From the IMG/VR virus record IMGVR_UViG_3300028829_005098, positions 1 through 64,000 of that record: a DNA stretch of 64,000 nt. One strand, written 5' to 3'. The first letter of the stretch is position 1. Every line of letters starts with the position of its first letter. The position numbers and the translations under genes are program-made. The notes under the pieces are model-generated. The model saw only the letters and a program-made list of their open reading frames with translations, did not search any database and was not told the origin of the DNA. Below, one piece after another: positions 741-32,516 of this stretch. The DNA is from a virus.

Positions 741-787
741 TTGTAACCTTTGTTTTGAATTTTATAGAAACATTATAATTTAATTAT

Positions 788-795
788 ATAAATAT
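788..795 (-). promoter_or_regulatory. ATATTTAT putative late-promoter motif upstream of nrdA
   Basis: Same octamer recurs in about 16 upstream regions in this window. Confidence 0.5.
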
Positions 796-843
796 ATTTT
801 ACGAAATGCATCGTAAAAATACATACTATATATACGAAATTTT

Positions 844-2259
844 TTATCCAATATCTGCCACATCTTCGTTATTATATGAATTTTTATTGTTCATTTGATC
901 GTACTTTGATTTTAAAATATTCTTTGTCCCATTCTCAGAATCATTCATTTCAACCATTATTTCCGCACCTTTTGTACTTTTTTCATCATATATTTCAATA
1001 ACACCAGAAGATGTGTCTACTCTACTTGGAAAAGTCATGCCATCTGCACCGAACCTATTTTTAATGACATGAAATCTACCTGTATTACTGACTTTGTCGG
1101 TTGCCTTTCTCGACAAACTTATAACAAAATCTGCCGTCATTATTTTACGATAACTATCAGCGACTTTTTGTGCTTCAATAATATTATCATCTAATGACGA
1201 ACGACTTGCTTGAGATGCCGTCCATACAGGTACTTGAAGTTCTCCTGCCAATCCTCGGAGATCTTCATAAATACCACCTTGCTCTACATATGTATTTGCA
1301 TTATTACCAACTCTTCCTGGTGATAAGATGTCCGCATAATCTATAACCACCATGTCAACAGGATAACCCATTGTTTTTGCTAAATTTGCATGAGCAAGAA
1401 TTGTACTAACTCCTACTCCTTTTGTTGGGTACTCTTTAATAAGAAGTTGTCCTTTGATATTTGAAATAATATTTTTCACCTTTTCTTTTTCTTCCACAAT
1501 ATCTTGAAAAGGTACTCCTGTAAAGCAACTATCGTAACGAAGTCCAACATAACACTCATTAAGTTCAAGGGTATAGTGTAAAACATTTTTACCACTAAGC
1601 ATAGCAGATTTACCGAGTGATGCTAAACACCAACTCTTACCTCCACCAGCACTACTGATAATCACACCGAGTTCACCGGGTCCTAATCCACCGTTTGTTA
1701 AATCATCAATAACTTCCCATCCTGTGTTAATGGTGTCACGTGCAGTTTCAGACATTCTTAGTTCAACATCTTTAAGATAGTCATGTCCCATGTTTCTTTC
1801 GGTTCCTGCTTTTAAAGCATCATCTACAATTCTTTTAATAGAATCATATTGACCACCTTTAAGAAAATCAACACTTTGCATAATAGCATTTTTAAGTTTT
1901 TGATTTTTGCAGAAATTAAGAAATTCATTTTTAACAAACTCGGCATCGTTTGTGTCAGTTTGTGTGAATATAGTTCTTAGATTATCTACCACTTCTGCTC
2001 GCAATGAATCAATTGTAATATCACCACACTTTATTTTAAATACATCAAGTGTTGCAGTTCGTTTATACACATCATAATGTTTAAGAATTTCCGAGACAAT
2101 CCACTTGTTTGCCTCACTTTCCCAATACATAGTTTCTATTATATCGTGTGTTCTATCAAGAAATGATTTATCATCAATTAAAGCACGAATTGTTTTGCTT
2201 TGAAATGCAGTACCAAACTTTTGTAGGGTATCCACATCGTTATTATTAGTCTCCGTCAT
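844..2259 (-). CDS. gp41: Replicative DnaB-family helicase (T4 gp41-like)
   Basis: Walker A SSAGGGKS, HYTLEL, VVIDYAD, VWTASQ, KNRFG motifs of SF4 helicases. Confidence 0.93.
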   Translation of the reverse strand: MTETNNNDVDTLQKFGTAFQSKTIRALIDDKSFLDRTHDIIETMYWESEANKWIVSEILKHYDVYKRTATLDVFKIKCGDITIDSLRAEVVDNLRTIFTQTDTNDAEFVKNEFLNFCKNQKLKNAIMQSVDFLKGGQYDSIKRIVDDALKAGTERNMGHDYLKDVELRMSETARDTINTGWEVIDDLTNGGLGPGELGVIISSAGGGKSWCLASLGKSAMLSGKNVLHYTLELNECYVGLRYDSCFTGVPFQDIVEEKEKVKNIISNIKGQLLIKEYPTKGVGVSTILAHANLAKTMGYPVDMVVIDYADILSPGRVGNNANTYVEQGGIYEDLRGLAGELQVPVWTASQASRSSLDDNIIEAQKVADSYRKIMTADFVISLSRKATDKVSNTGRFHVIKNRFGADGMTFPSRVDTSSGVIEIYDEKSTKGAEIMVEMNDSENGTKNILKSKYDQMNNKNSYNNEDVADIG

Positions 2260-2270
2260 ATTATTTAATT

Positions 2271-2299
2271 AGATTATCAGAAGCATCGTCTGTAATCAA
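2271..2299 (-). promoter_or_regulatory. Sigma70-like promoter for helicase
   Basis: TTGATT-17 nt-TAATCT with TG upstream of the -10. Confidence 0.45.
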
Positions 2300-2316
2300 G
2301 GATTTTCTTAAAAAAA

Positions 2317-3396
2317 TTAAGATTGTGAAGAAGTTGCATAGTTATTCAGAACGGTCCATGTTTCCATGATCCAATTATGGTGGTTTGGAAAGGCGGCCCA
2401 TAATTGGTCTTCTGCAAACTTTTTGCTAAATTCAAACTTGTTTAAAACTGAAACAGATGAATCTACATGATCAAAAATCTTTGTTTGAATACTAGCAGGC
2501 ATTATGCTATCTGTTAATTGCATTAAGTCGTAGTTTCTTTTTAACAACTCTTGAGTTTCTTCTTTTAGAAAGTTTTTAAAAAAAGGCATTTCTTTTTTTC
2601 GTTGTTCACATATATTGATTAAGTTTTCAACATTTAGTTTTTCTTCGGTGGCAAACTCAGGAAATGCAGTTTTTAGTTTCTTTTCACCTACACCTTTTAT
2701 TCCTGCAATATTGTCTCCCCTGTCTCCGTCTATTGTTCTGTATAATAAAAAGTTATTTGGATGTATTCCGTATTCAAATAAAACTTTTTCCGCAGTATAA
2801 ACTGTTCGTTTCGTTGGACTATAAACAGTTACATCTTCATCTACAAGTTGAAGAAAGTCTTTATCGGTACTCATAATAGTACACTTTTTCCCAAGACCAC
2901 TAAAATGAGTTCTAGCAAGTAAGGCAATTACATCATCTGCTTCAACATTATCTATGCAGATTGTAGTTACAGGAAGCAAGTTTAAATATTCAATTAGTTT
3001 TACTATTTGATATTTCATTGAACTTGACTCTTCTGTTTGATCCATGTCCAAACTTAATGCACGATTTACACGAAAACGAACATTCTTTTTCATTTTATAG
3101 TCAGGAAATATTTTTCTTCTTCGTGTACTTCCACCTTTTCCATCAAAAACAATTACACAACGTGTTGGTTTACGTAAACGTATTGCGTGTCCTATGCTTT
3201 TTAGGAAACCTGTATATCCACCTATGTGATCTCCGTTTTCGTTTGTGGTTGGATACATACTCCAAACTCGCATGAAAGTATTCATGCCATCTATTAGAAG
3301 TGTATCTGAATTTAAATCTCTATCATGTTTAAGTTCTGTTTTCTGTTCCTCAGAAAACTCTTGAAATAAACTGAAGATTTTATTCTTATCACTCAT
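2317..3396 (-). CDS. 5'-3' exonuclease / flap endonuclease (T4 RNase H, PolI 5'-nuclease family)
   Basis: LLIDGMN, VFDG, EADDVIA, STDKDFLQL, GDRGDNIAGIKGVGEK (H3TH) motifs. Confidence 0.92.
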   Translation of the reverse strand: MSDKNKIFSLFQEFSEEQKTELKHDRDLNSDTLLIDGMNTFMRVWSMYPTTNENGDHIGGYTGFLKSIGHAIRLRKPTRCVIVFDGKGGSTRRRKIFPDYKMKKNVRFRVNRALSLDMDQTEESSSMKYQIVKLIEYLNLLPVTTICIDNVEADDVIALLARTHFSGLGKKCTIMSTDKDFLQLVDEDVTVYSPTKRTVYTAEKVLFEYGIHPNNFLLYRTIDGDRGDNIAGIKGVGEKKLKTAFPEFATEEKLNVENLINICEQRKKEMPFFKNFLKEETQELLKRNYDLMQLTDSIMPASIQTKIFDHVDSSVSVLNKFEFSKKFAEDQLWAAFPNHHNWIMETWTVLNNYATSSQS

Positions 3397-4549
3397 CAGA
3401 CACCGTTGCTAATTCTTGTTCAACAATTGTATCGTTATCTTCAAACTTAACATCTTCGTCAATGACACTATTTGCAGATTCATACTGCATAACAACTTTG
3501 TCGCATATGTGATTATATAATTCTTCTTTTAGTTCAGGATTTTCTGCTAACAAAGTTGGAAATTCTTTTGCCATAAACTTGTGTTCGTTTTCTTTAGAAT
3601 CAACATAGGTATAGTATGCACCACCTTGCTTAAATACTTTATGAGTTTTAAGTGTGGAAATCCAACTTCCCAAATCATCAATACCACGATTGAAATAAAT
3701 TTCAAAGGCTGCTTTTTTTTGAGGAGGACCCATACGATTCTTAACGATTGTTGCTTCGCATTTGTTTCCAATTACATCGGTTGTGGAACCCTGTTTAATT
3801 TGACCAAGATTCTTCAAACGAAGACGAACACTTGCGTGGAATGCTAATGCCTTACCACCACTTGTTGTCCACGGATCACCAAACATAACTCCCATCTTTT
3901 GACGAAGTTGGTTAGTGAATACTAAAGCAATTTTTTGACGTCCAATTGTTGAAGTCAACTTACGCATTGCTTTACTGATTAAAATTGCTTTGGTTGTTGC
4001 AAATCCGTCTTTACTATAATCTGCGGACATTTCTACTTTTGTGGATGCGGCTGCAACACTATCTGTAACAATAGTAACAAGTCTATCTTTGTTGCTTTTA
4101 CGAATTGTTGCAATGATATTATCTATGGTCGCAAAAATATCTTCTACTGTGTCTACATGAACATACAATAGTTTGCTTGTATCAACACCAATAGCAGTAA
4201 GATACTCAATACTAACACTTGTTTCCGTGTCAATATACACTGCAACACCTCCCTTCTTTTGAGTTTCTGCTAGAATGTGACCACACAACAAACTTTTACC
4301 ACTTTGTTCTAGTCCTGTTACTTCTGTGATTCTTCCAACAGGAATTCCACCATTCGGTCGATTTGAAATTGCTAAATCTAGTAAACTGCTACCCGTTGAA
4401 ATCCATTCTGAAATCAACGACGGATCGTCCCCCTCGTTTAAAAAGAAGGCAACCTTACCTTCATCTTTATATGCGGTATTTAAACTATTTGCTAATACCG
4501 ATGCCAAGTCCTCGGAACTTGTTTTGCTTGTTTCTTTTTTTCTTGCCAT
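3389..4549 (-). CDS. uvsX: RecA/UvsX recombinase
   Basis: GRITEVTGLEQSGKS Walker A, YIDTE, DSVAA, FTNQLR, TTSGGKALAFHASVRL. Confidence 0.95.
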   Translation of the reverse strand: MARKKETSKTSSEDLASVLANSLNTAYKDEGKVAFFLNEGDDPSLISEWISTGSSLLDLAISNRPNGGIPVGRITEVTGLEQSGKSLLCGHILAETQKKGGVAVYIDTETSVSIEYLTAIGVDTSKLLYVHVDTVEDIFATIDNIIATIRKSNKDRLVTIVTDSVAAASTKVEMSADYSKDGFATTKAILISKAMRKLTSTIGRQKIALVFTNQLRQKMGVMFGDPWTTSGGKALAFHASVRLRLKNLGQIKQGSTTDVIGNKCEATIVKNRMGPPQKKAAFEIYFNRGIDDLGSWISTLKTHKVFKQGGAYYTYVDSKENEHKFMAKEFPTLLAENPELKEELYNHICDKVVMQYESANSVIDEDVKFEDNDTIVEQELATVSDE

Positions 4550-4565
4550 AAATTTAAAAGTTTAT

Positions 4566-4594
4566 GGGAGTGGTTGGGATTTCCAACCACTCCC
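4566..4594 (-). terminator. 12-bp GC-rich hairpin between SSB and uvsX (terminator or processing/stabilising stem)
   Basis: GGGAGTGGTTGG-GATTT-CCAACCACTCCC perfect inverted repeat just after the SSB stop. Confidence 0.65.
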
Positions 4595-4602
4595 GTTTTT
4601 TG

Positions 4603-5433
4603 TTAAGACTTAAACAACTCTTCAAAAGCAGCCTCTACATCTTCAGTTGAAGTTGCATTTGGTTTGCTTTTTTCAGAAGTCGTGCTTTCTGCGGTTGGTG
4701 CTGAAGCAACGGTTTTTTCTGTCGATTCAACAACAACATCAGAATCTACTGACTCGGCAGGAGGAGCATCTTCTTCAGATTCCCCACTTACCCACTTTTC
4801 AAGTGCGTCTTTTAATTCATCGTAACCAAGTTCTTGATAAATATCTGTAATTTCAGGTTGATTGTTAGCAACATTCTCTACGATATTTTTATTATCTGAA
4901 ATAGGTGATGTATTTGGTTTCACACGGATGTTTGTCTTTGGAAAAGAACGACCTGCTTCTTCTGCTGAAAGAAATTCAATTGTGATATCTCTTCCATTAG
5001 TTGCATCGGTGATGTCTCCATAATCGGGATCAGCAATAACACTTAATAGTTCTTGATAAACTTCTTTACCAAATCCCCAAAAACGAACTCCTTCTGCTTC
5101 TTCATCACGAACGATGACAGGTACAAATGTACGCATCTTCGGCATAAGAGAACGACCCATGCGGTAATCATCTTTGTCACCACTACGAGTTAACTTTTCA
5201 GCAAACTCAACGATTGGGTCAGGACGACCAAACGACTTTGGTGATAAGTATGTTCTATTATTGATTCCATAATGAAAATACAACTCAATAAATGGATTAT
5301 CGGGTTGATGCTTGTATGGTACAATACGAACTTGTTGCTTACCAGGTTGAGGTTTCCATTGATAGTTTTTGCGATTATTTGTCTGAGACAAATTATTCAA
5401 CTTTGCTTTTATTTTATTTAGGTCAATTGCCAT
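4603..5433 (-). CDS. gp32: Single-stranded DNA-binding protein (T4 gp32-like)
   Basis: WKP..G...VRIVP, PFIELYFHY, FWGFGKEVY, DITDATNGRDI, acidic C-tail ending AFEELF; next to uvsX. Confidence 0.88.
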   Translation of the reverse strand: MAIDLNKIKAKLNNLSQTNNRKNYQWKPQPGKQQVRIVPYKHQPDNPFIELYFHYGINNRTYLSPKSFGRPDPIVEFAEKLTRSGDKDDYRMGRSLMPKMRTFVPVIVRDEEAEGVRFWGFGKEVYQELLSVIADPDYGDITDATNGRDITIEFLSAEEAGRSFPKTNIRVKPNTSPISDNKNIVENVANNQPEITDIYQELGYDELKDALEKWVSGESEEDAPPAESVDSDVVVESTEKTVASAPTAESTTSEKSKPNATSTEDVEAAFEELFKS

Positions 5434-5474
5434 TGTATATTCCTTAATTTGTATTTGTTATTATTATTCTTAAT

Positions 5475-5503
5475 ATAATACTATTCGTTTTGAGTTTCGT
5501 CAA
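5475..5503 (-). promoter_or_regulatory. Sigma70-like promoter for the SSB-uvsX-exonuclease genes
   Basis: TTGACG-17 nt-TATTAT, then an A-rich leader with AAGGA RBS. Confidence 0.7.
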
Positions 5504-5518
5504 TCAGAATTATATTAA

Positions 5519-5749
5519 TCAAGAGAATTTTCCGCCATTTTCAACGAAATTGTAAAAGTCAGAAGCAACTTCTAATACTTCATGTGTAGTTGGTAATGGT
5601 GGCATATCAGGAGAAACTTTTTCAAAATTTGCATAACTTTGCAATTCTTCTTTTTCCATGTGCCATCTTTCCCATACCATTTCTTTTGCACTTTTTAGCA
5701 CTTCCAATCGAATACCGAGATTGGTTAATTTATCAGATTCATTTGTCAT
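5519..5749 (-). CDS. Small hypothetical protein of a type seen in T4-like phages
   Basis: IRLEVLKSAKEM ... PTTHEVLEVASDFYNFV pattern; ATATTTAT motif upstream at 5798-5805. Confidence 0.6.
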   Translation of the reverse strand: MTNESDKLTNLGIRLEVLKSAKEMVWERWHMEKEELQSYANFEKVSPDMPPLPTTHEVLEVASDFYNFVENGGKFS

Positions 5750-5820
5750 TTTTTCAATTATTATTATTCAATTACATTAACGAATTAATGCGTGTATATA
5801 AATATATTTCAGACTATGTT

Positions 5821-6603
5821 TTATGTCAATTTCAAAGCATTTTTTTGAATATTTTTTTCAATTCTTTCGCATGAAATTTCAACTGCTTTTTTGTTAATAT
5901 CACATCCTATGTATCTACGATTTAAAGAATTAGCAACATCAAGTGTTGTTCCACTTCCGCAATAAAAATCTGCAACTAAATCTCCTTCATTGCTACTTGC
6001 TTTTATTATTCTTTCAAGTATCTTTGGATGTTTTTCTGAATAATAATCAGTTTGTTTTTTAACTTTTAGTCCAGATGGAATATCATCCCATACATTTGTT
6101 GGAATTGTTCCAAGTGCTAACTTTTCTGCGGTGATATTGGGACGATCTTGTTTTTTACTAATTACAGATTTGTATGGAACTCGGATATCTAAATCATTAA
6201 AAACAAAATCGTTTGATTTTGTATACACAATTATATAGTCATGTTTTTTTGCAAATTCTTTTTTTCCACGGCCACCTATATTAAATTTTACTACAATTTG
6301 GTTTCTGAAATTACTATAACCGAATATGTCATCCATAATATTTCGTATCCAGTGAACGATACGTAAATCCATTTGAAGGTATATTGTTCCTGCATCTTTT
6401 AATACACGATGCATTTCTGTTAAACGTGGAATATAGTGTTGTTCTATAACTTTTTTAGTTGGAACTAAATCTTCATAATCTTTGAATATCTTTCCAGTTC
6501 CATATAAAATGTCACAATAAATTAAATTTAATTCATTAGACTTTATATTATTTAATAATTTTATATTATCACAACAATAGATGTTGTTTTCTTTTATTAT
6601 CAC
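5821..6603 (-). CDS. DNA N6-adenine/N4-cytosine methyltransferase (beta-class motif order)
   Basis: LIYCDILY at motif IV position, FRNQIV, KHDYIIVYTK, HPKILERIIKASSNEGDLVADFYCGSGTT (motif I), YIGCDIN. Confidence 0.85.
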   Translation of the reverse strand: MIIKENNIYCCDNIKLLNNIKSNELNLIYCDILYGTGKIFKDYEDLVPTKKVIEQHYIPRLTEMHRVLKDAGTIYLQMDLRIVHWIRNIMDDIFGYSNFRNQIVVKFNIGGRGKKEFAKKHDYIIVYTKSNDFVFNDLDIRVPYKSVISKKQDRPNITAEKLALGTIPTNVWDDIPSGLKVKKQTDYYSEKHPKILERIIKASSNEGDLVADFYCGSGTTLDVANSLNRRYIGCDINKKAVEISCERIEKNIQKNALKLT

Positions 6604-6605
6604 TA

Positions 6606-8171
6606 TTAAACTTTTCCACCTTCGTATCGTTTCATCTCACCATTATTGTAACGATAACGAACCTCAACCTCCACACTTTCTTTTGCTTCACCATATCCTT
6701 CTTCAATTACATCATAAGTAAGAATATTAATTGGTTTTTTTATTATTTCGTGTAGATATGCCATAGTACCTGTTGCATACTTTATATCAAGTGGACGACC
6801 TTCAAAATCATGTCTTAACAAAATTTCTGTATTTTTATATTTCATATTTTCAAGATAAATTACAGGACGACCCATATTAATATGTCTGTCTATTAATTTC
6901 TTTTTAATACGTTTATAGTCTTTGCTAACTACAACATATTTGTTGGTTGACTTATCAAGTGCATATTCAAAATACTCGTGCTTCTCACAAAAATCTCTTG
7001 TAAAAAATTCATTTAAAAATGTAACATCATTATAGTTCTCACGAACTTCATATAGTTTTTCACGACCTAGATTTAAGTTTTTATTCCAGTGAAGTTTTTC
7101 AAAACCATCATCACAATTTTCATACTCTTTTCCGAATTTACCTTTATTCCATCGGTCTTCAATATCACGCAACAAAGTATTTCCAAGTTTGTATGGATTG
7201 TTCATGTTATATTTACCACCCAAAACTCCTGCGTGGTGTTTTGCATAATCAAAAATACCATCGTCACCTGCAAAATTGCAAGTTGCCATTATATAAGAAT
7301 CCCAATAACTTGCCCAACCTTCGTTTAATACTTTTGTCATCCCCTGTGGTTGGTAGTAAATTGACTCATCACGAATCATACTTAAAATATTTTGTTGCCA
7401 AGGTTCTAAACGACAATGGTTGATAATGAATAACATAATATCTCGTTCAGGATGCAATGGAAACTTACTTTCGGCAAGTTTAGTTCTTTCTTCTCGTTCA
7501 CGACGTTGCTTTTCGATATAATGAGACGGATTTACATACTTCTGCATATATTCTTTTGTATCCATTCTTGATACGTGTTCACGTGGACGTCGGTCTTCAA
7601 AATTAAACTTTGTTGCTTTCTTTAAACTACTTTCACGATAGCACAATGATGGATCAATTAAATCGTCAATAGCAAGAGCCGCATTTAAAAAGTCTTTTAC
7701 CTTTTTGCGACCAAACCTATCCATGTACATACGAATTTTATCACTATGGTTTGCCATAACATTCATCATGTTACGATTCGTATGTTTGAACATAATATTA
7801 TTTTTAAAGAAGTCACTATGTGCAGTTGCGTGGGCAACAACTGTTAAATTATCAACAATAGGGTTGTTTCTTTGTAGATACATATAAGTTGGATCTGTGT
7901 TTACAACCATTTCGTAAATCTTACCCATACCTGAATGGTATTGATAGTGGAGTTGTTCAAATTGTTGTCCAAAATTAAAATGAGGATAACGAACTGGGAA
8001 TCCACCATAGGCTGCAATCTCAACTATTTCGTCCGCATCAAATTCTTCAATTACGAGTGGATATGGATCAAGTCCATTGTCATAACAGGCCTGTAAGCAT
8101 TCAGGTATTAACTTTGCTAACTCAGGACTTACTCCTTCGTTTAAACTATCGATTTCCCATGCAATTCCCAT
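6606..8171 (-). CDS. spoVR: SpoVR/YcgB family protein
   Basis: AYGGFPVRYPHFNFG, KIYEMVVNTDP, VVAHATAHSDFFKNN, TKVLNEGWASYW, NPYKLG. Confidence 0.95.
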   Translation of the reverse strand: MGIAWEIDSLNEGVSPELAKLIPECLQACYDNGLDPYPLVIEEFDADEIVEIAAYGGFPVRYPHFNFGQQFEQLHYQYHSGMGKIYEMVVNTDPTYMYLQRNNPIVDNLTVVAHATAHSDFFKNNIMFKHTNRNMMNVMANHSDKIRMYMDRFGRKKVKDFLNAALAIDDLIDPSLCYRESSLKKATKFNFEDRRPREHVSRMDTKEYMQKYVNPSHYIEKQRREREERTKLAESKFPLHPERDIMLFIINHCRLEPWQQNILSMIRDESIYYQPQGMTKVLNEGWASYWDSYIMATCNFAGDDGIFDYAKHHAGVLGGKYNMNNPYKLGNTLLRDIEDRWNKGKFGKEYENCDDGFEKLHWNKNLNLGREKLYEVRENYNDVTFLNEFFTRDFCEKHEYFEYALDKSTNKYVVVSKDYKRIKKKLIDRHINMGRPVIYLENMKYKNTEILLRHDFEGRPLDIKYATGTMAYLHEIIKKPINILTYDVIEEGYGEAKESVEVEVRYRYNNGEMKRYEGGKV

Positions 8172-8175
8172 GATA

Positions 8176-9330
8176 TTAAAAAGGTACTTCTTCGTTGGAA
8201 GGTGTTAATAATTTTTTAAGAGTTTTGAATACATCACTTGCGTCTTGCATTGTAGCAGTTACAATTTTTTCAGAATCTAATGTTCCTGTTGATATTTCTT
8301 TTTCAATGTGAGGTAAAAATGTTGCCCAACTACGAACTGCTTTTACTTCGGTTATTCCAATTAAATTAGCATACTTTTGCATTGTTTTCAAATACTCTAC
8401 ACATAAATCATTATCAGAACCAAAATTTTCTCCGTCACTTAAATAAAATACGTAGATATTCCACTCGTTTAACGGAAATGCTTTTTCAATGATATCATTA
8501 ACCAAATGAAACGCACTACTAATTTGTGTTCCACCACCACTTTTATATTTGTAGAATTTTTCTTGGTCAACTTCCTGTGCATGGTGATCGTGAACGATAT
8601 ATTTTACTTGTGTTTCCTGATAGAATCGTTGTACCCAATTATCAATATACCAACACAACTCACGAATTAATGAACGTTTTTCATCGTCCATACTTGCTGA
8701 TATATCTGATACAAAAAATATGGCCGCATTGGTATCAGGTATTTCAACAGAACTCCAACTACGAAATTCTTTATCTTCTTTAATTGGATAAAAGTTAGAT
8801 AAATCGTCTTCGTTGTAATCACCTGATGAAATTAATCGTTTGAATGCGTTCTTTAATGTTTTTCGTTTATGAAGAAGTGAATTGTTTCCGACTTTGGCAA
8901 TACGATTCCATTTAATTTTTTCTTTAACCATTTCACCATTTTCTTTTGGAAGCAAGTTAGGCAGTTGGAGTTCTTCTCCTATCATATCAAAATAAGCATC
9001 CATGCTAATTCCAACATCCATTTCACGACCGTCTCCACTTCCTTCACCACCTTCACCAGGTTGGTTTCCACCTTGTCCTTGTTGTTGAGGTCCGTCACCC
9101 ACTTCGTCACCTTCACTTACTTCACCATTGCCGATACCACCACCGTCGGATGGTGATCCGTAACGGAAACTTGGGAGTTCAATTTGAGGAACACGAACTA
9201 CCACGAAGTCTTTTCCTCTTCGTGATATGCGTTGACCACTCTTGATGTGCTTTTTTAATTTATCGTCTACATTGTCATGTACAATGTCACGATATTCACG
9301 ATGGTCTTCTCTGATTCTACGAGATGGCAT
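8176..9330 (-). CDS. yeaH: YeaH/YhbH (DUF444) vWA-domain protein
   Basis: Gly-rich N-region, ELQLPNL, MIDAS DISASM, SGGGTQISSA, WNIYVFYLSDGEN; lies between prkA and spoVR. Confidence 0.93.
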   Translation of the reverse strand: MPSRRIREDHREYRDIVHDNVDDKLKKHIKSGQRISRRGKDFVVVRVPQIELPSFRYGSPSDGGGIGNGEVSEGDEVGDGPQQQGQGGNQPGEGGEGSGDGREMDVGISMDAYFDMIGEELQLPNLLPKENGEMVKEKIKWNRIAKVGNNSLLHKRKTLKNAFKRLISSGDYNEDDLSNFYPIKEDKEFRSWSSVEIPDTNAAIFFVSDISASMDDEKRSLIRELCWYIDNWVQRFYQETQVKYIVHDHHAQEVDQEKFYKYKSGGGTQISSAFHLVNDIIEKAFPLNEWNIYVFYLSDGENFGSDNDLCVEYLKTMQKYANLIGITEVKAVRSWATFLPHIEKEISTGTLDSEKIVTATMQDASDVFKTLKKLLTPSNEEVPF

Positions 9331-9350
9331 AATGATGATTTTGTTGACTA

Positions 9351-11453
9351 TTAATCTTCGTCTTCGTCTGCATCACCTCTTGCAAAAATACTACCTACAT
9401 ATGTAAGAACATCAGAAGCACTATCTGCATCGTATCCGAATGATGTAATAAGACGTTGCTTGAGTGCGTCAATCTTTTCAAGAAGTTCTTTGTCAACTAC
9501 GGTTGCAGTATCTTGTGCAAGAGCAGATAACTTAATGCTATCTTTAGTATCTTCAAACAATTTCTTTTCAAGTGCTTTGTAAAGTTGCTCGTTTGAGTCA
9601 TACTTAAATTCTTTGCCCTTAGCGGCAAGACCACCCATATAGTTCATAATTTCTCTACGGAAATCATCTTTCATACCATTAGAAATACCAATTTTTTCTT
9701 CGATGCTACGCATAAGTTGCTCGTTTGCAGTTTCTTCTTTTCCAGTTACAGGATTTGTAACTTTTTCATCTTGAATATAAGCAACGATATTATCAATGTA
9801 GTTTGTGCAAAGTGCTTTAATTGCTTCTTCACTACTGCTGAGTGCTTGTTGTACTTCACGTTTCACGATTCTGTCATATTCTTTTTCTACAAGTTCAAGA
9901 CGTTCAAACATAATCTTTTTGTTGTCTTCACTTTGAAATCCACTATAACTTTTAAGTCCTTCACGAATTTGTGCGAATAACATAAATGGATTTAAACTCT
10001 TTGCACCCATTCTTGGATTTACAATCGCATTAGAGAATTGATTCTGAATAAAACGAGCAGATACTCCACCGTATAATCCTTCTTTTGGAGATTCTTCTTG
10101 CATTTCCTTTACGTGTTCATCTGTGAAACCATGTACACTTTGTCCGTTGTAAAGTTTTGCTTTTTGAATGATGCTCATATCTTGCTTTGAACTTTCTTCT
10201 AAACGACTTACAACCGCAAACAACGCAGCTAAAAATGTTGTATGTGGTGCAATATGCTTATTTACAGTGCTTTTATTATAGAAGTGATCATAAATTTTCT
10301 TTTCTTCCGAAATCTTCAAAAGATACGGAATATCAATTTTAATAGTTCTATCACGAAGTGCTTCCATGAATTTATTGTTGGTTAACTTTTCAAACTCAGC
10401 ATTATTCGTATGACCAAGAATAACTTCATCAATAGGTACTTGGTTGAAACGACGTGGTTTAACACGATGTTCTTGGGTTGCACCAAGTAAATCATACAAG
10501 AATTCAGTTTGAAGTTTAAGAATTTCTTGAAACTCAATCAAACCACGATTAGATACCAAGAACTCTCCATCAAAATCAAATGCACGGGGATCACTTTCAC
10601 TTCCATATTCAGCAAGTTTTCTGTAATTAATGTCACCTGTAAGTTCTGTTGCATCTTGTGACTTTTCGTCTTTTGGTTGAAATGTTCCGATTCCGACACG
10701 ATTCTTCTCGGACAAAACAACACGTCTAACCACTACATGATCAAGAACTTTACGATAATCACCACCGTGCATTTCCATAAGTTGATTATAGTAAAACTCG
10801 TTTACAGGATTCAAAGAACCATCAAGTTTTAATTTATATTCATCTGCGGAAATTGTTTTATTTAAATTATTAATGATCTGAGAACGCACATCGTCAGGAA
10901 GAAGTTTGAGTGGTTCTTCGTTCATTGGACATGGAACTAATACATCATCACCATTTTTATCGGTTACTTTCCAACTAAATGAATATAAAGCACCTTCTTC
11001 AGTTTGAGTGTATTGTTCTAGTCCTTTCTTAAGAGCAGTAACAATAGTTGACTTACTACTTCCAACAGGACCATGTAAAAGAATAACACGACGTTCAGGA
11101 CCATAGTGACGACTTGCACTTTTAAGAATGTCCATAAATTCCATTAAATTCTCTTCAAGTCCATAAATAGATATGTCACCAAGGTTTTGGAAAAATTTAT
11201 ACTTAACATATTGTCTCTTGCAATACTTGAACTCGTCTGTTCCATGAGACATTACCATGTCGTATAATCTTTGGTAAGAATTTCTTGCTATCTTTGGATT
11301 GCTTTCCAATAGAGCAATGTAATCCCAGAAACTTCCTGACCAATTCAGTGACTTATATGTATCAATGGATTTGTTGTTTTCAGATTTGATTAAAGACTTT
11401 AGGTCACTTACAACCTTTTTTTCTTTTTTTTCGTGTCGTTTTTTATTTTCCAT
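9351..11453 (-). CDS. prkA: PrkA/YeaG AAA+ ATPase (annotated serine protein kinase); start re-called at ATG 11453
   Basis: RNSYQRLYDM, LHGPVGSSKS Walker A, CPMNEEPL, GIGTFQPKDEKSQDATELTG, SDPRAFDFDGE, NRGLIEF, EALRDR. Confidence 0.95.
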   Translation of the reverse strand: MENKKRHEKKEKKVVSDLKSLIKSENNKSIDTYKSLNWSGSFWDYIALLESNPKIARNSYQRLYDMVMSHGTDEFKYCKRQYVKYKFFQNLGDISIYGLEENLMEFMDILKSASRHYGPERRVILLHGPVGSSKSTIVTALKKGLEQYTQTEEGALYSFSWKVTDKNGDDVLVPCPMNEEPLKLLPDDVRSQIINNLNKTISADEYKLKLDGSLNPVNEFYYNQLMEMHGGDYRKVLDHVVVRRVVLSEKNRVGIGTFQPKDEKSQDATELTGDINYRKLAEYGSESDPRAFDFDGEFLVSNRGLIEFQEILKLQTEFLYDLLGATQEHRVKPRRFNQVPIDEVILGHTNNAEFEKLTNNKFMEALRDRTIKIDIPYLLKISEEKKIYDHFYNKSTVNKHIAPHTTFLAALFAVVSRLEESSKQDMSIIQKAKLYNGQSVHGFTDEHVKEMQEESPKEGLYGGVSARFIQNQFSNAIVNPRMGAKSLNPFMLFAQIREGLKSYSGFQSEDNKKIMFERLELVEKEYDRIVKREVQQALSSSEEAIKALCTNYIDNIVAYIQDEKVTNPVTGKEETANEQLMRSIEEKIGISNGMKDDFRREIMNYMGGLAAKGKEFKYDSNEQLYKALEKKLFEDTKDSIKLSALAQDTATVVDKELLEKIDALKQRLITSFGYDADSASDVLTYVGSIFARGDADEDED

Positions 11454-11460
11454 AACCATT

Positions 11461-11489
11461 ACCTTATATTTGTTTTGTTGATTCGTCAA
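11461..11489 (-). promoter_or_regulatory. Sigma70-like promoter for prkA-yeaH-spoVR-MTase
   Basis: TTGACG-17 nt-TAAGGT, -10 ends 7 nt before ATG 11453. Confidence 0.6.
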
Positions 11490-11497
11490 ATAATAAA

Positions 11498-11902
11498 TCA
11501 AATTTTTATTATTTTAAATAATTTTGTGGGTACTATCTTCAAAGCATCACTTGTTGTAGTGTCAGTTAAAAGAATTGAATTTGTATAATCATTCCAATTA
11601 ACCATGTAATTTTGATCAAGTATTCCGTTGTTTAGTGTTTTAATTAGTGCGTTCAATGAATTTATAGTATAGATTGTATTAGAATCTTTTTTTCTGTGAA
11701 CACTTATTGTGTTGGGAAAAAAAGAACTAGTATTTAATGTACTAGAATCTATGTTGTATGTCAATAGCAATTCGTTAACATTGTCTTTGTTTTGCAAAAC
11801 ATACACTTTGTTGAATAATATCTTATAAAAATTTTTGATATTCTCTATTGTATTAGAATATTCAGATATTTTTGAAAATGTACAAAGTAGTTGAGTTCTC
11901 AT
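11498..11902 (-). CDS. Hypothetical phage protein (134 aa; start re-called at MRTQLLCTF)
   Basis: AAGGTTA RBS-like element and ATATTTAT motif (11927-11934) precede ATG 11902; HRKKDSNTIYTINSLN core. Confidence 0.65.
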   Translation of the reverse strand: MRTQLLCTFSKISEYSNTIENIKNFYKILFNKVYVLQNKDNVNELLLTYNIDSSTLNTSSFFPNTISVHRKKDSNTIYTINSLNALIKTLNNGILDQNYMVNWNDYTNSILLTDTTTSDALKIVPTKLFKIIKI

Positions 11903-11946
11903 AATCAGTATAACCTTTAGGTAATAATAAATATGAATATATTTTC

Positions 11947-13248
11947 TCAAACCTTTAGTTCTTTTAGATTGCCATATGAATTACCAACATAAACTCGTAG
12001 TGGAAATTTATTATTGTCAGTAAGTTCTTTGATTATATCTTTAATTAAATAAAACTCATCTTTATGCATATCCAGCATAAAAGCATCATAATGATACAGA
12101 AACAATTTACTTCTGTGAGTTTCTAATCGTGAATTCAATTTTAATATCATATCACAATTTTGTTCCGTCTCTGCTGATTGAATTAAATAGTTAAATAACT
12201 TATATGGATTGAGTTGAGTAAAATACTCTTTACTTATTTTTCTACTATATTTCCAAGTAGTAACATAACCCTTGTTATTAAATTCACTCCACACAGAATC
12301 AACATAATCTGCCACACACTTCATGAATGGAATGTGTTTTTTAATATCTTCTGATATACCTCCATATATTAAATTAAATGTTACTTTTTTTGATAACTCA
12401 TATTCTTTTTCATTCAAATGCTCTTTATCGTGATAAAACTTTCCAAGATATTCGTGCAAAGAATATGAAGGTAATTCAAAATTTAAATAGTCACCGACTA
12501 ATCTTAAATGATAACTCTCATAATCAATCATTACAATACCACCCTCGTTTCCAAATCTACTTACAAATGAATCTCGTTCATTTTTCTTTTTATTAAGAGC
12601 CGCAAAGTTAATTTTAGCAAATCTATTACTTGGACGAGTTGTTGGTGTATAATAATTATATTGACTATACACATAATTGCTATCGTCTATTAATGATAAG
12701 TCACCTAGATTAAATGTATCTCGGTTTACATAAACTCCATTCGTTTCTATATCATAAAAACATTTACATAAATTATTTGATAATCTTGTATTATTATCAT
12801 CTTCAGTTCCGATATAAGAATTTAAAAGTTTCAAGGTATCGTCGAAACTTTTTTTTAGTATCATAATAGGTACAGATTTTATGTCGGAAAACCTTGGATA
12901 TTTATATGTTATTTGTTCAAGAGTAGTAACATAAACATCATACGATAAATCAATAAAATTATCTACATTTAAAAAATGATTTGCTTCTTTTTTATTTAAA
13001 ATATATTTTTTACATCTTGTATCAATTAACTTAGTTAAACATCTATTATCGAGTAATACTACATCAGGGTGACCAAATGATAATACATAATTTTCATTTG
13101 TTTCTCTGTGATGCACAAACAAAGCAATCAGTTCTGCTTTACTCGGATGTATTCGTTCATCATATATCAACTGAAAAAAACTATGTCCTGAATTAAGTTT
13201 ATTCAGCAACGAAACAAACTCATCATAAGTTTCTACAAAATTTAACAT
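11947..13248 (-). CDS. Miniature family-A DNA polymerase (degenerate 3'-5' exonuclease region, reduced thumb)
   Basis: YNYYTPTTRPSN (TGRLS-like), motif A IDYESYHLRL, motif B SKKVTFNLIYG, NYLIQSAE, motif C LYHYDAF. Confidence 0.8.
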   Translation of the reverse strand: MLNFVETYDEFVSLLNKLNSGHSFFQLIYDERIHPSKAELIALFVHHRETNENYVLSFGHPDVVLLDNRCLTKLIDTRCKKYILNKKEANHFLNVDNFIDLSYDVYVTTLEQITYKYPRFSDIKSVPIMILKKSFDDTLKLLNSYIGTEDDNNTRLSNNLCKCFYDIETNGVYVNRDTFNLGDLSLIDDSNYVYSQYNYYTPTTRPSNRFAKINFAALNKKKNERDSFVSRFGNEGGIVMIDYESYHLRLVGDYLNFELPSYSLHEYLGKFYHDKEHLNEKEYELSKKVTFNLIYGGISEDIKKHIPFMKCVADYVDSVWSEFNNKGYVTTWKYSRKISKEYFTQLNPYKLFNYLIQSAETEQNCDMILKLNSRLETHRSKLFLYHYDAFMLDMHKDEFYLIKDIIKELTDNNKFPLRVYVGNSYGNLKELKV

Positions 13249-13290: not shown

Positions 13291-13722
13291 TTATAAGACT
13301 TCTGCTGAATAGAACTCCGTTAGACTTCTTATTTTGAAACCTATATCAGGAATTATTTTTCTAATTGACTTAAATACTCGTTCGTTATTTTCAATTACAC
13401 CGATTTTTATTTTAACTCCGTTCTCGTCATAGGTATCTCGTAGAGGTCCTGCTATTTTCCATTTAATTTCTTGAACCTCGTAAAAAGGATTTTTCAATAA
13501 ACGATTATATTGTTCTCTATCTATTTCAAATACCGTGGATTTTGGATCACTTGATTTAACTGCAAAATATCTATACATAAACTCCACCTCATAATCTTCA
13601 TCTTCGGGTTCTGGTTTTATATCAATCGGTGATTCTTTAATAGACGATGTTTTTAATCGTCCATTATCAGTAAGCAATCTTTGATAAAGTATTTTACTTT
13701 CTATGTTATCTTGAATTTCCAT
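13291..13722 (-). CDS. Hypothetical protein, last gene of the baseplate cluster
   Basis: 143-aa ORF whose start overlaps the stop of the 975-aa gene. Confidence 0.55.
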   Translation of the reverse strand: MEIQDNIESKILYQRLLTDNGRLKTSSIKESPIDIKPEPEDEDYEVEFMYRYFAVKSSDPKSTVFEIDREQYNRLLKNPFYEVQEIKWKIAGPLRDTYDENGVKIKIGVIENNERVFKSIRKIIPDIGFKIRSLTEFYSAEVL

Positions 13723-16649
13723 TATGATGTTTTGGTACTTGGTATATATTCACCCGAAATATCTGTTAACCAATTATTATCCGATATTGTGTGTTTTACC
13801 GATTGTATTCTCCAATGTCCATTTATGAAATAATGTGTAGGAACTCCTGTACACGTAAATACATCTAGCAACCTTAGTCCTTCAATACCATCTAGTGTTA
13901 GTGAAATTTGACAACCATCAAGAGGCATATTATTTTTAACGCAATTTAATTTATTGTTATCAAACTTCATTGACTTAACCATTCGGTTTTTGTTAGGATC
14001 TACCATTTCAACATCACTTCCACCCCCATCAACAATAAATTTTTCTTCTGATTCTATATCTTCCTCTTCGTCTTCTTTTTTTCCATCGTTTCCACTAACT
14101 GCATCCTCCACAACCGGACGACTACACGCCTTTAATAATCTATCGTTACGACCACGTGCATAGAAAGTTGCTTGTGGATTGTTATCAAGGTCATCTTCAC
14201 TTTCATCTTGCCCTTCACCACGGGATGCTTGAAATAAAACCTGACCTGCAACTTCCTGTGGAACTGCAACGTCTAAACTAAGATTTTTAACGATACTATT
14301 TTTTGTATGTGATTTAAATCTAAATAATTGGTCTTCTTTTTGTATATCATATGCAGTTACTAATCCAGGATATCTTCTATCTATTAAATGAACACGATAA
14401 CTACAAGGTGCTCCTGTGTCTGCTTGTACTAAATCAAAATCCCAAATACCACCAGCTGCATCCGACACTTTTTTCATAATTTCTTTTATTATTTGTTTTA
14501 TATCAGAACCGTTTTCCACCGCATCTCTAATTACATTATAGTTTACAAATAAATCTTGTATTCTTCCACTATATCCCTGTGTGGGTTTATCGTTTATTTT
14601 CTTGAAATCTGGAAATGAATTTACGGCATCTTTAAATCCATTTTTTTCTGCTCTTTGTGATAAAATATCGTATAAGTCATCACGTGGAGAACTTTGCAAT
14701 GCTTGGTCTAATCCTGCCAACTTAGAACCTTTTCCTTTTTCGGCATTAATGATTTTTACAACAGACTCTGAATCCATGCTATTTGATAGCATGGATTTAA
14801 TTTCAGATAATGCTTTACTTGCTACACTACCACTTGCTTTACCGTTTCTTCTTGGTGACATTCTGTTCGGTATTAACAAAACTTTACCATCGGTGGATTT
14901 TATATTTGGGTGAGCAACACATCGTGAATTTGCTACACAAAACTTATATACTGGTATATTTGTTTCCTCTGAGGTCTTTGCGAAAAAGAAATTCACAATA
15001 TCAATAAAAAATCCAACTGTAATATAAACATCTTCGTGATCGGAGTGATAAGTTTCTTTTCCACTAATTGCTTGGTCAAACTGATAAAATCTGCCTCTTG
15101 CAAAAGATCCTGCGGAAATTTTTGTTGCATTTGCTCTGTTGTCGGTGAATAGATCGGTTATTTTATCCAAGAAGTCATTTGGATCATCTCCCTCTAATAT
15201 TTCATCTAACTTTGTGGATATAAATAATTTAAAATCTTTTTGTCTATCATCAGGTTTTGCAGGTGCGTCTTTTTTAACTTTTGTCGATTCGTTGTTTAAT
15301 CCTGTGGCCATTTGTGAAAATGTTGTAACTTTAATTTCACAATCGTATCCTCCGTCATCCCGAATACTATAACTATAATTTGAAACAGTCCCAGCCGCAA
15401 ACGAATAATTTCCTTTTCCTCTTTTAAGATGCTTTGATGCATAAACAGGATCCGTGAAAAGTCCTGCTAATCCTGTTCCACTTTCTGTACGATAATCGTT
15501 GGTTTCATCTATATCATCTCCACTTATAGGTCCTTTATCTTCATCTGCTTTTCTTAAATTGTTAATTGTTGCGGTGGAATTTTTTGCTTTTTTTCCTTTT
15601 ACTTCTCGCATAGGTTTTCCCATATCAGTTGGGTCTACGAGAACTCCTTCTCTTGGATACGTATTCCAACCCCACTCGACCAAACAAGTAGAACCAAGTT
15701 TAAAGAAATAATCATCGAGATAATCAAGTTGATTACGACTATGCACAAGAAATTTTATAGTTGTTTCACGAAAGTTTGCACCAGGTTGTTTGTCTTCTGA
15801 TGTAATTTCTGTGACACCAGGTGATGGTTTGTGTTTAAAATCTTCCTCTTTGATTGTGTGTCTTACTTCACCCGCACCCTTTTCACCACTATCCCACCCT
15901 TTACCAAGATAAGTTTCACCGTCTCCTTGTCCAGTTTTTGGATTGAATCCATATATCTCGTGAAAATCATTGAATCCTTGAAGTTCAAATCCATATATTT
16001 CTTTGTCAGTGTCAGGATGTTTTCCAATTGAATTGGATATAACACGCATCCATGCAGTTTTCGGACCACGATAAATAGTATCGTTATACGAAGCATCAAA
16101 TGTTGAACTATTTTGCATTACTTGATAAGCATCATCGGCAAATTCACCTGCTTGTGTATAATACATTCCAAAGTTTTGTTCTCTCCGTGTAAATTCATTT
16201 CTTACCCAAGCACGAATGTGAGTTGTACCAAATACACTCGACTCACCAACTGTACTTGCTTCATCCATAAATGTTCCCTTGGGTGGAGGTTCTGGTTCTT
16301 TAGAAAGCAAGTTTGCAGTAGCCGACTTTTTATTTTCAAATAGTTTTCTTGGTGTTCCTTTTGCACTTTCTTTTTTAGCAAACGGATTTTCTATTTTACC
16401 TGCTCCTCCGTCACCACCACCTAATAAACCATTAAGTGCTCCACCAAGACCACCACTTGAATCTCCACCCAGACCCAACTTGCTTCCAAGTTTATTTGCA
16501 ACAGCTCCAGCACCACCTCCTGATTTTCCTCCTAATAAATTATTAACTCCATTTTTGATAGAAGAACCGGCATCACCTTGTCCAGGATTATTCTTCTTCA
16601 GAGCATCCATTGCGGTGTCTTTTAATTGCCCTAATTTCTTGTCAAACAT
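13722..16649 (-). CDS. Putative baseplate hub protein (gp27/gp44-like) with Gly-rich N-terminus
   Basis: Follows LysM gene; LVEWGWN, YDCEIKV, C-terminal SLTLDGIEGLR..D.F...WRIQSVKHTISDNNWLTDISG typical of hub proteins. Confidence 0.55.
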   Translation of the reverse strand: MFDKKLGQLKDTAMDALKKNNPGQGDAGSSIKNGVNNLLGGKSGGGAGAVANKLGSKLGLGGDSSGGLGGALNGLLGGGDGGAGKIENPFAKKESAKGTPRKLFENKKSATANLLSKEPEPPPKGTFMDEASTVGESSVFGTTHIRAWVRNEFTRREQNFGMYYTQAGEFADDAYQVMQNSSTFDASYNDTIYRGPKTAWMRVISNSIGKHPDTDKEIYGFELQGFNDFHEIYGFNPKTGQGDGETYLGKGWDSGEKGAGEVRHTIKEEDFKHKPSPGVTEITSEDKQPGANFRETTIKFLVHSRNQLDYLDDYFFKLGSTCLVEWGWNTYPREGVLVDPTDMGKPMREVKGKKAKNSTATINNLRKADEDKGPISGDDIDETNDYRTESGTGLAGLFTDPVYASKHLKRGKGNYSFAAGTVSNYSYSIRDDGGYDCEIKVTTFSQMATGLNNESTKVKKDAPAKPDDRQKDFKLFISTKLDEILEGDDPNDFLDKITDLFTDNRANATKISAGSFARGRFYQFDQAISGKETYHSDHEDVYITVGFFIDIVNFFFAKTSEETNIPVYKFCVANSRCVAHPNIKSTDGKVLLIPNRMSPRRNGKASGSVASKALSEIKSMLSNSMDSESVVKIINAEKGKGSKLAGLDQALQSSPRDDLYDILSQRAEKNGFKDAVNSFPDFKKINDKPTQGYSGRIQDLFVNYNVIRDAVENGSDIKQIIKEIMKKVSDAAGGIWDFDLVQADTGAPCSYRVHLIDRRYPGLVTAYDIQKEDQLFRFKSHTKNSIVKNLSLDVAVPQEVAGQVLFQASRGEGQDESEDDLDNNPQATFYARGRNDRLLKACSRPVVEDAVSGNDGKKEDEEEDIESEEKFIVDGGGSDVEMVDPNKNRMVKSMKFDNNKLNCVKNNMPLDGCQISLTLDGIEGLRLLDVFTCTGVPTHYFINGHWRIQSVKHTISDNNWLTDISGEYIPSTKTS

Positions 16650-16658: not shown

Positions 16659-16955
16659 TTATCCGTTTGAATTAACTTTAGAATGATCCGCAATTATTTC
16701 TTGAATATTGCGAGGTACTCTAAGTTGTGTTCCTGGTTCTACGTACATTGTTCCTCCGATTGAGTTGGCATTGGCAATTACCCACCAATAATTTGGATTA
16801 TCATAGAATTTATATGCAAGATGGTCAAGTCTTGTTCTTTCAACCATCATTATATAAACATCACTGCTTCTTTTTTTTATTCTACCCAATAAGGTCGTTT
16901 GGGTAATTTGCTTACCACCATCGTCTTCTTTTTTTGTTGTGAATGTGTATCTCAT
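16659..16955 (-). CDS. LysM-like baseplate protein (gp53/tail X-like)
   Basis: RLDHLAYKFYDNPNYWWVIANAN ... PGTQLRVP. Confidence 0.8.
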   Translation of the reverse strand: MRYTFTTKKEDDGGKQITQTTLLGRIKKRSSDVYIMMVERTRLDHLAYKFYDNPNYWWVIANANSIGGTMYVEPGTQLRVPRNIQEIIADHSKVNSNG

Positions 16956-19489: not shown

Positions 19490-19527
19490 ATATTCATAAA
19501 TATACAAATATATTTTTTTTATATATA

Positions 19528-28260: not shown

Positions 28261-28296
28261 ATAACAATAAATATATATTCCACGCAAAAAATAAAC

Positions 28297-29668: not shown

Positions 29669-29691
29669 TGTAAATAAATATATATCAAAGC

Positions 29692-32408: not shown

Positions 32409-32516
32409 CTGTTATGTCTCCTTTTTGGGTTATGGGTTGAAATTATGGATTTTTTATTAAACTTTATTGATAAATATGTTCTGAAAATTTGAAAAACATT
32501 ATATTTATCAAATAAA

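Follow-up and report, generated by a model that had tools for sequence, protein, structure and literature searches.

PrkA (YeaG in Escherichia coli), the DUF444 protein YeaH and SpoVR form one of the most widespread gene trios in bacteria, and their biochemistry is unsettled (kinase, protease or chaperone). The presence of all three in a phage raises the question of whether the module is a genuine, functional part of the viral genome and, if so, what it may do there. The DNA analyzed here comprises positions 1-64,000 of IMG/VR record IMGVR_UViG_3300028829_005098, and this 64,000-nt stretch is referred to below as the window. The whole virus record is 115,415 bp in length and is rated 58% complete by CheckV, which puts the genome at roughly 200 kb. 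Judging from the sequence comparisons described below, the trio is almost certainly a phage version, still functional, of the PrkA/YeaG-YeaH-SpoVR module of cells. An Immutovirus-like myovirus of the T4 type captured it long ago as a cassette, between g134, a 134-aa open reading frame (ORF), and the SSB gene among its replication genes, and it has been inherited vertically since.

The trio consists of three adjacent, co-directional genes on the minus strand, the strand on which every long ORF of the window lies. They are a long-type prkA/yeaG homologue (9351..11459, minus strand; ORF 9351-11501), a DUF444/yeaH/yhbH homologue (8176..9330, minus strand) and a spoVR/ycgB homologue (6606..8171, minus strand), with gaps of 20 nt between prkA and duf444 and 4 nt between duf444 and spoVR. 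The original prediction, made from the letters of the window alone, had described three full-length genes in bacterial operon order. Pfam matches covering nearly the full profiles bear this out, and the same order, on one strand, was seen in 54 of the 80 nearest cellular loci, with both partners inside the flank. PrkA matched AAA_PrkA (PF08298; 3.5e-85, profile positions 2-357 of 358) and the kinase-like PrkA C-terminal domain (PF06798; 4.4e-70, profile positions 1-255 of 255), DUF444 matched its own family (PF04285; 3.8e-66), and SpoVR matched PF04293 (4.5e-107) over nearly the whole profile, with no match to the Pfam SpoVR_C model. PrkA as a Lon- or FtsH-type protease was rejected, since Pfam shows only the AAA_PrkA and PrkA C-terminal domains and no fused protease domain; the likeness of PrkA to Lon claimed in the literature is one of sequence alignment only (PMC9512850).

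The motifs that had been described as intact are also invariant in alignments. PrkA's Walker A motif reads GPVGSSKS, in which K146 is the equivalent of K108 of Bacillus subtilis, and residues G140-P-V-G143, K146, S147, E319, E322, N362 and R381 do not vary between the window, E. coli, Haliangium and the phages phiYS40 and RsoM2USA; the ATPase site, with its Walker A Lys, acidic Walker B region, and sensor Asn and Arg, is intact. The DUF444 protein combines a conserved N-terminal segment with a von Willebrand factor A (vWA) domain, whose metal ion-dependent adhesion site (MIDAS) residues D209-x-S211-x-S213, T268 and D299 are invariant in both a 6-sequence and a 35-sequence alignment. In SpoVR the invariant residues are H64, E87, H114, H118, E284 and N325-P-Y. 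One detail of the prediction had to be revised, namely the end of the operon at 11489, which is a TTG. An alignment of 24 unique relatives places the conserved prkA start at the ATG at 11459 or 11453, behind an AAGG, consistent with the length of the database homologues of PrkA (702-703 aa). Phage PrkAs carry a Lys/Glu-rich N-terminal extension.

An artefact or passenger, i.e., a chimeric assembly, contaminating host DNA or a moron of recent acquisition that is now in decay, would account for such a find without any role in the phage. With PrkA as query, IMG/VR yielded 32 contigs at 78-99% identity, of which 31 share the window's gene neighborhood as far as each extends, in the order g850-g98-g975-g143-PolA-g134-prkA-duf444-spoVR-methyltransferase-g76-SSB-UvsX-exonuclease-DnaB. 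Since identical junctions on both sides recur in ~30 independent assemblies, the trio is not an assembly chimera, the possibility that the original prediction had named as fatal to it. Across these contigs the trio proteins are 77-99% identical, on par with SSB, UvsX and DnaB, while the upstream genes are 26-68% identical, except in one near-identical contig (L005). Ratios of nonsynonymous to synonymous substitution (dN/dS; median pairwise values by NG86 for pairs with 0.05 < dS < 1.5) were 0.064 for prkA, 0.053 for duf444 and 0.049 for spoVR, as compared to 0.053 for SSB, 0.077 for UvsX and 0.060 for the exonuclease, and to 0.25-0.55 for the upstream genes (g134, 0.25; PolA-like, 0.36; g975, 0.44). 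The highest pairwise value within the trio was 0.09-0.13, and no diversifying selection was seen; these figures indicate purifying selection and refute relaxed selection. Frameshifts in duf444 (~aa 323) and spoVR (~aa 160 and 468) of one 80-kb contig (L025; 10157-12869) could be taken for gene decay. We rejected that explanation because the neighboring genes are equally broken (the methyltransferase, g76 and helicase matches are fragmented too), and an indel-prone assembly is more likely. Taken together with a GC content of 0.33-0.38, which matches the rest of the window and agrees with the AT-richness noted earlier, and with the lack of any cellular genome copy above 56% identity, these results make an artefact or passenger extremely improbable.

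How the trio came to lie where it does is best seen by comparison with cultured relatives. The source is an uncultured T4-like phage, an Immutovirus-like myovirus of the T4 type, and its record encodes a T4-type portal, large terminase, major capsid protein (MCP), tail sheath and baseplate hub, along with a Rad50-like protein and the large subunit of ribonucleotide reductase (RNR). The nearest cultured relatives by MCP identity are Flavobacterium phage immuto (55%), Microcystis phage Mel-JY01 (52%) and Rhodothermus phage RM378 (45%), and neither PrkA nor SpoVR was found in any of the three. Positions 1-8744 of Flavobacterium phage vB_FspM_immuto (NC_055915.1) are collinear with positions 1-13248 of the window through PolA-gp002-gp003-SSB-RecA-exonuclease-DnaB, with RNR genes further on, and gp002 is 53% identical to g134 (E = 5e-43). 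Where immuto has a single 171-aa ORF, the window has prkA-duf444-spoVR-methyltransferase-g76. Since the immuto backbone is collinear but lacks the trio, the trio, the methyltransferase and the small ORF g76 constitute an inserted cassette, and g134, together with the ATATTTAT motif discussed below, belongs to the backbone and not to the cassette. The flanks are as predicted: upstream of the trio lie g134 and then a 433-aa PolA-like ORF, and downstream lie a gp32-like SSB, UvsX/RecA, a 5'-3' exonuclease and DnaB. DNA matches to the methyltransferase come from Cellulophaga and Polaribacter phages; these, the link to immuto and the 33% GC hint at a host in the Flavobacteriia, which we regard as only a lead.

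The age and origin of the capture can be judged from the distribution of PrkA. Matches among 5.8 billion proteins fall into two blocks, one of metagenomic proteins at 72-92% identity (one from Tara Oceans) on contigs of up to 290 kb, and one that begins at 56% identity and runs downward through Haliangium, Kofleriaceae and Planctomycetota. Among 185,579 prokaryote species, represented by one genome each, no cellular PrkA exceeded 56% identity and the nearest were at 52-56%, leaving a gap between viral or metagenomic PrkAs (72-99%) and cellular ones (at most 56%). A maximum-likelihood tree of 63 PrkAs unites the 18 viral and metagenomic sequences in a single clade beside the cellular long-type group, with a support of 100 in the Shimodaira-Hasegawa-like approximate likelihood ratio test and a stem of 0.88, so the phage-specific clade that had been suggested for checking does exist. 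The Thermus phages occupy a separate long branch of this tree, RsoM2USA groups with E. coli YeaG, and the megaphage copy has no firm place in it; from these groupings, it seems that the module entered phages on more than one occasion. By profile search, a long-type PrkA was detected on 63 IMG/VR contigs, most with DUF444 downstream and with SpoVR where the 3-kb flank reaches it; 26 of the 63 are at 41-51% identity, on contigs of up to 572 kb with a GC content of 0.30-0.60.

Nearer to the window is a second viral sub-clade, with PrkA ~77% identical and quite different gene neighbors; the context of the 72-78% metagenomic PrkAs was judged from IMG/VR loci L032, L037 and L149-L155. At L032 (1662-13874) the trio follows an RNR large subunit, a trypsin-like serine peptidase, an RNR small subunit and a 346-aa ORF, and it is followed by an IMPDH/GMP reductase-like gene. 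At L037 the neighbor of the trio is GTP cyclohydrolase I.

The database search for co-located trios also showed that phage-borne copies are already on record. PrkA is encoded by the Thermus phages phiYS40, TMA, YS40_Isch, phiLo, MN1 and Lalka, by the Ralstonia jumbo phage RsoM2USA, and by the megaphages LR756511, LR745206, LR756502 and LR756504; each has a SpoVR match except the Lalka phages, and Pfam confirms DUF444 in those checked (phiYS40, MN1 and RsoM2USA). All three proteins are covered by PHROGs 22605, 19072 and 35217. RsoM2USA and megaphage LR756511 have the gene order of the window, whereas the Thermus phages have a permuted order, DUF444-SpoVR-x-PrkA, and megaphage PrkA is 49% identical to that of the window. 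By sequence, the Thermus, Ralstonia and megaphage trios appear to be acquisitions independent of the window's lineage. The statement that no characterized phage version is known therefore holds as regards function but not as regards annotation; the RsoM2USA paper, for example, lists SpoVR and PrkA with no test (PMC8504454). Thus, the window adds a well-supported member to a kind of system that was already known.

Among cellular versions, the nearest in sequence are the long-type operons of Myxococcota (Kofleriaceae, Haliangium), Planctomycetota, Bdellovibrionota and Calditrichota, which have the same PrkA-DUF444-SpoVR order and, like the phage trio, a long PrkA (680-700 aa) and a short DUF444 that lacks the E. 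coli insert. Identity between the two is 52-56% for PrkA, 41-45% for SpoVR and 29-37% for DUF444, and the phage trio, unlike these operons, forms a separate long-stem clade and lies in a replication module of 33% GC. The closest solved structure, a 692-aa 'Serine protein kinase' (PDB 9xip, 9xiq and 9xir), is of the same long subtype and presumably cellular; it corresponds to residues 39-704 of the phage PrkA (E = 2e-212 for 9xip), and a literature search found no paper on it. E. coli YeaG (SpdA)-YeaH-YcgB and B. subtilis PrkA-YhbH-SpoVR belong to the same three Pfam families, and share the invariant Walker A, MIDAS and SpoVR motifs; genetic data (cofitness, starvation proteolysis, sporulation) exist for these versions alone. 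The phage proteins are 27% (PrkA), 23% (YeaH) and 27% (YcgB) identical to those of E. coli, where the genes are split over two loci. Expression of the E. coli and B. subtilis genes is governed by RpoS, NtrC or sigma E, whereas a motif of the phage precedes the phage genes.

This motif, ATATTTAT, is promoter-like and lies at the PolA/g134 junction (11927..11934, minus strand), 25 nt upstream of the g134 ATG (11902). The window contains 28 copies, as compared to 11.1 ± 3.5 expected, with sites that include 788-795, 5798-5805, 11927-11934, 29674-29681, 32470-32477, 35891-35898, 48301-48308 and 55089-55096, and 15 of the 21 copies on the minus (coding) strand fall within -25 to +80 nt of an ORF start, an interval that in total covers 8.9% of the window. 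At the PolA/g134 junction it is kept in 20 of 21 unique related loci and also in the trio-less phage immuto. Copies stand ahead of virion genes, among them those for the sheath, adaptor and terminase, as well as ahead of the RNR large-subunit gene and g76, and the motif is probably the phage's own general promoter element. The sigma70-like promoter that the original prediction had assigned to the operon could not be distinguished from background, with 46 sigma70 consensus-like sites in the window and 46.2 ± 7.8 in shuffled sequences. Directly upstream of prkA there is instead a TTGAC-N15-TATAAGG element (11462..11489, minus strand), a putative cassette promoter or ribosome-binding region, which occurs once in the window against 0.06 expected. 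All 24 unique relatives share its TTGAC and ATAAGGTAAT but differ in the spacer and in the end of g134; the 15-nt spacing is non-canonical, and as a promoter the element would leave almost no leader. An inspection by eye of the sequence upstream of prkA found no exact match to the Bacteroidota-type consensus TAnnTTTG. The cassette is probably co-transcribed with g134 from a ATATTTAT-type phage promoter and not from a host sigma70 early promoter. Since ATATTTAT stands ahead of virion, RNR and replication-side genes alike, it does not fix the timing of expression, and the early expression that had been proposed for the module is unsupported.

What, then, might the module do? We estimate at somewhat under an even chance that it is a self-contained, ATP-driven machine for the turnover or remodeling of host proteins during infection, a reading drawn from the comparisons above and from the genetics of the cellular homologues. 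PrkA would be the AAA+ motor, YeaH a vWA/MIDAS adaptor attached to SpoVR through its N-terminal segment, and SpoVR a zincin-like, metal-dependent subunit. Such a machine would degrade or remodel bulk cytoplasmic host protein during infection, and the amino acids and energy released would feed phage protein synthesis in nutrient-poor cells, as E. coli YeaG/SpdA does in starvation. In six bacteria, the best cofitness partners of yeaG, yeaH and ycgB are found within the trio itself (10.1101/072470). E. coli YeaG, since renamed SpdA, is needed for the non-specific, starvation-induced degradation of cytoplasmic proteins, which yields amino acids and ATP (PMC13684143), and casein degradation by B. 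subtilis PrkA was dependent on ATP and on Walker A (PMC9512850). The position of the L032 trio among resource-mobilizing genes (RNR subunits, trypsin-like peptidase, GMP reductase-like) also led us to this reading.

The role given to SpoVR comes from its motifs and its predicted fold. A set of 39 diverse SpoVRs shares Y-E87, H114-x3-H118-x-D-F-F, N-E284-G-W-A and N-P-Y327, with N-E284-G-W-A located ~170 residues downstream of the His pair; the His spacing in E. coli YcgB is 5. We take NEGWA to resemble N-E-G-F-A, the third-ligand motif of M1 peptidases, and the His pair plus NEGWA to resemble gluzincin metal ligands. An AlphaFold model of SpoVR (pLDDT 88.3, pTM 0.85) predicts a zincin-like N-terminal domain and a C-terminal alpha/beta domain. 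The model's top 50 VIA structural neighbors are nearly all zincin metallopeptidases or uncharacterized relatives, with Z-scores of 11.2-5.7 that lie, by the tool's own note, within the chance range for helical models. The zincin neighbors align over 160-210 residues that span residues ~2-420, and their families include DUF885 (Z = 11.2), M1 (9.9), M30 (9.6), LTA4H (9.3) and thermolysin (7.8), as well as M32, M3, M4, M9 and ACE. The weak top rows of a Foldseek search were anthrax lethal factor, itself a zincin. A zincin-like and possibly metal-dependent SpoVR is thus a lead from structure prediction, and our literature search found no paper that pairs SpoVR with a zincin or metallopeptidase.

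The invariant motifs of SpoVR are also marked by mobile elements. Many homologues of 650-1350 aa bear inteins, mostly with LAGLIDADG homing endonucleases (P0124-P0149 and P0212-P0265), and two of them (P0132 and P0136) bear two inteins each. The insertion points are at residues ~90, 110-118 and 287/288 in window SpoVR numbering and adjoin the invariant motifs. Inteins typically occupy functionally critical sites. A different insertion, of ~130-170 residues, is present in at least 25 SpoVR cluster representatives (P0150-P0263), in the loop after residue 355 (~355-366).

A link between two of the proposed parts of the machine was sought by complex prediction. SpoVR with DUF444 scored 0.79, a mark attained by 58 of 80 solved complexes and by 2 of 110 mismatched pairs and which expresses model confidence and is not a measurement; the best of three controls scored 0.00. 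Three runs shared at least 73% of contacts, with a partner pLDDT of at least 70. The predicted interface is formed on the DUF444 side by the conserved N-terminal segment (residues 1-16 and 42-80) and on the SpoVR side by residues 47-76, which include the invariant H64, together with the C-terminal domain (residues 434-472), and it leaves the vWA/MIDAS domain of DUF444 free. Since no sequence relative of DUF444 or SpoVR was found in the PDB, this score does not reflect memory of a solved complex. The model supports a putative binding of YeaH to SpoVR.

Several observations weigh against a protein-turnover machine, beyond the limits on the structural and complex scores just given. The catalytic Glu of HExxH is absent from SpoVR, where the motif is H-(A/V)-x-x-H with Ala or Val at the +1 position in 39 of 39 sequences. 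A Foldseek search of the PDB with the SpoVR model returned nothing at E ≤ 1e-3, and a SpoVR profile searched against PDB sequences gave nothing significant, only a chance match to clathrin light chain. The biochemistry of the cellular module is itself contested: the protease and kinase activities of B. anthracis PrkA were negligible in vitro (PMC13001217), while E. coli YeaG is reportedly a kinase, with autophosphorylation and phosphorylation of casein and AceA (as cited in 10.1101/072470 and PMC9512850). A role for YeaH and YcgB in starvation-induced degradation is unreported in the work on SpdA (PMC13684143), and the rate of YeaG-dependent degradation in E. coli, a few percent per hour, is perhaps too low to matter within the latent period of a phage. 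A bolder form of the protein-turnover reading would make the trio an unrecognized split AAA+ metalloprotease, in which an AAA+ unfoldase and a vWA adaptor plugged into SpoVR would serve a non-canonical, zincin-like SpoVR as hydrolytic subunit, and which large phages would have captured repeatedly in order to build virions with amino acids and energy drawn from the host proteome. A functional analogy is offered by FtsH and other AAA+ proteases, since they too couple an AAA+ motor to a zincin-type metal site; however, FtsH has both parts in one chain with a canonical HExxH, while the phage trio has separate genes bridged by a vWA protein and an HxxxH that lacks the Glu. We consider this bolder form doubtful. 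If true, it would be the protein counterpart of phage-driven degradation of host DNA.

A takeover of host signaling is the alternative closest to the original prediction, which favored an override or mimicry of dormancy control. PrkA, as a Ser/Thr kinase or kinase regulator, would act with YeaH and SpoVR to reprogram stationary-phase, nitrogen-starvation or dormancy control and keep starved hosts productive. The retained kinase-like C-terminal domain is in keeping with this, as are the YeaG kinase reports and the signaling pathway proposed by the cofitness study (10.1101/072470), and the phenotypes of cellular mutants, which concern nitrogen or carbon source use and lag time (10.1101/072470, PMC13684143). 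However, neither of two independent studies detected kinase activity in Bacillus PrkA (PMC9512850, PMC13001217), and the newest genetics assigns the YeaG phenotype to bulk proteolysis (PMC13684143). An override or mimicry of dormancy control is conceivable but gains no specific support. Pure signaling would also need host-specific targets, yet closely related trios occur on phage contigs that range in GC from 0.30 to 0.60 and whose gene neighborhoods are very different, and a phage that carries all three genes would seem to bring a machine sufficient in itself rather than feed into a pathway of the host. For these reasons we regard signaling as unlikely.

A comparably small chance attaches to a chaperone or assembly factor. 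An AAA+ protein with a vWA/MIDAS partner is the hallmark of MoxR-type chaperones, and such a pair, with a metal-binding SpoVR, might mature a virion, replication or host complex without bulk degradation, in parallel to the role of prkA and spoVR in the spore cortex and coat. The invariance of the MIDAS and ATPase residues and the missing catalytic Glu of SpoVR would suit it, B. anthracis PrkA is required for the spore integument despite having no protease activity (PMC13001217), and the upstream ATATTTAT is common to virion-gene operons. Yet ATATTTAT also precedes the RNR large-subunit gene and g76 and thus gives no tie to morphogenesis; moreover, immuto and Mel-JY01, with MCPs 52-55% identical, build similar virions in the absence of the trio, and the trio is found in phages with unrelated structural modules. 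Phage-encoded or hijacked AAA+ proteolysis of host factors is a known strategy, and the module could instead serve counter-defense or a targeted takeover by selective removal of particular host proteins, such as defense systems, hibernation factors or regulators. While B. subtilis PrkA does act on a regulatory route towards ScoC and sigma K (PMC9512850), a search with PADLOC models found no defense or anti-defense family at E ≤ 0.01 save a chance-level REase match in SpoVR (E = 0.0077, 13.8 bits), and the very strong conservation of the trio, with no pairwise dN/dS above the values given earlier, is unlike that of arms-race genes. Targeted removal is accordingly quite improbable.

Whichever of these activities applies, apparently separate acquisitions by several phage groups and selection, in this lineage, equal to that on replication proteins indicate that the module gives a direct fitness gain in infection, and they amount to lineage-level evidence that it is indispensable to the phage. 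Since all three genes travel together, the module probably works without host-specific partners. The phage copies are compact, self-contained versions suited to reconstitution and structure work, and the cultivable Thermus and Ralstonia carriers allow a genetic test of viral recycling of host protein. The predicted zincin-like SpoVR fold, the inteins at invariant motifs and the predicted interface between the YeaH N-terminus and SpoVR are leads that name concrete mutants.

Beyond the trio, the cassette continues with an N6/N4 DNA methyltransferase (5821..6603, minus strand; Pfam N6_N4_Mtase, 7.8e-42), which starts 2 nt past spoVR and is syntenic in all related loci, and with g76 (5519..5749, minus strand), a small ORF between the methyltransferase and SSB that is recognized by its reading frame and synteny and has a dN/dS of 0.36. 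Upstream of g76, the ATATTTAT copy at 5798-5805 is accompanied by a TTGACA-17-TATATT site at 5829-5801. The backbone gene g134 (11498..11902, minus strand) heads the transcription unit and is not specific to the trio; its start, M-(K/R/N)-T-(Q/K)-LLCTF, is conserved in 23 relatives. It has no Pfam or PHROG match, the protein Atlas returned the identical sequence alone, and its AlphaFold model has a pLDDT of 61. At the DNA level, a phage collection gave nothing beyond short stretches that match the methyltransferase and g134. The 115-kb record (58% complete) showed no integrase, and the 64-kb window has no tRNA genes.

Further upstream, g975 (13722-16649, 975 aa) and g850 (16955-19507, 850 aa) match no family and evolve fast, with ~32-60% identity to most relatives, and a 2245-aa ORF at 19528-26265 has only weak, tape-measure-like PHROG matches. 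The spacer between SSB and UvsX (4550-4602, minus strand) contains a perfect 12-bp GC-rich stem-loop, GGGAGTGGTTGG and CCAACCACTCCC separated by a 5-nt loop, and comparable hairpins, also rich in GC and with T-runs after them, are present upstream of three ORFs (27922-28287, 28964-29668 and 34546-35886).

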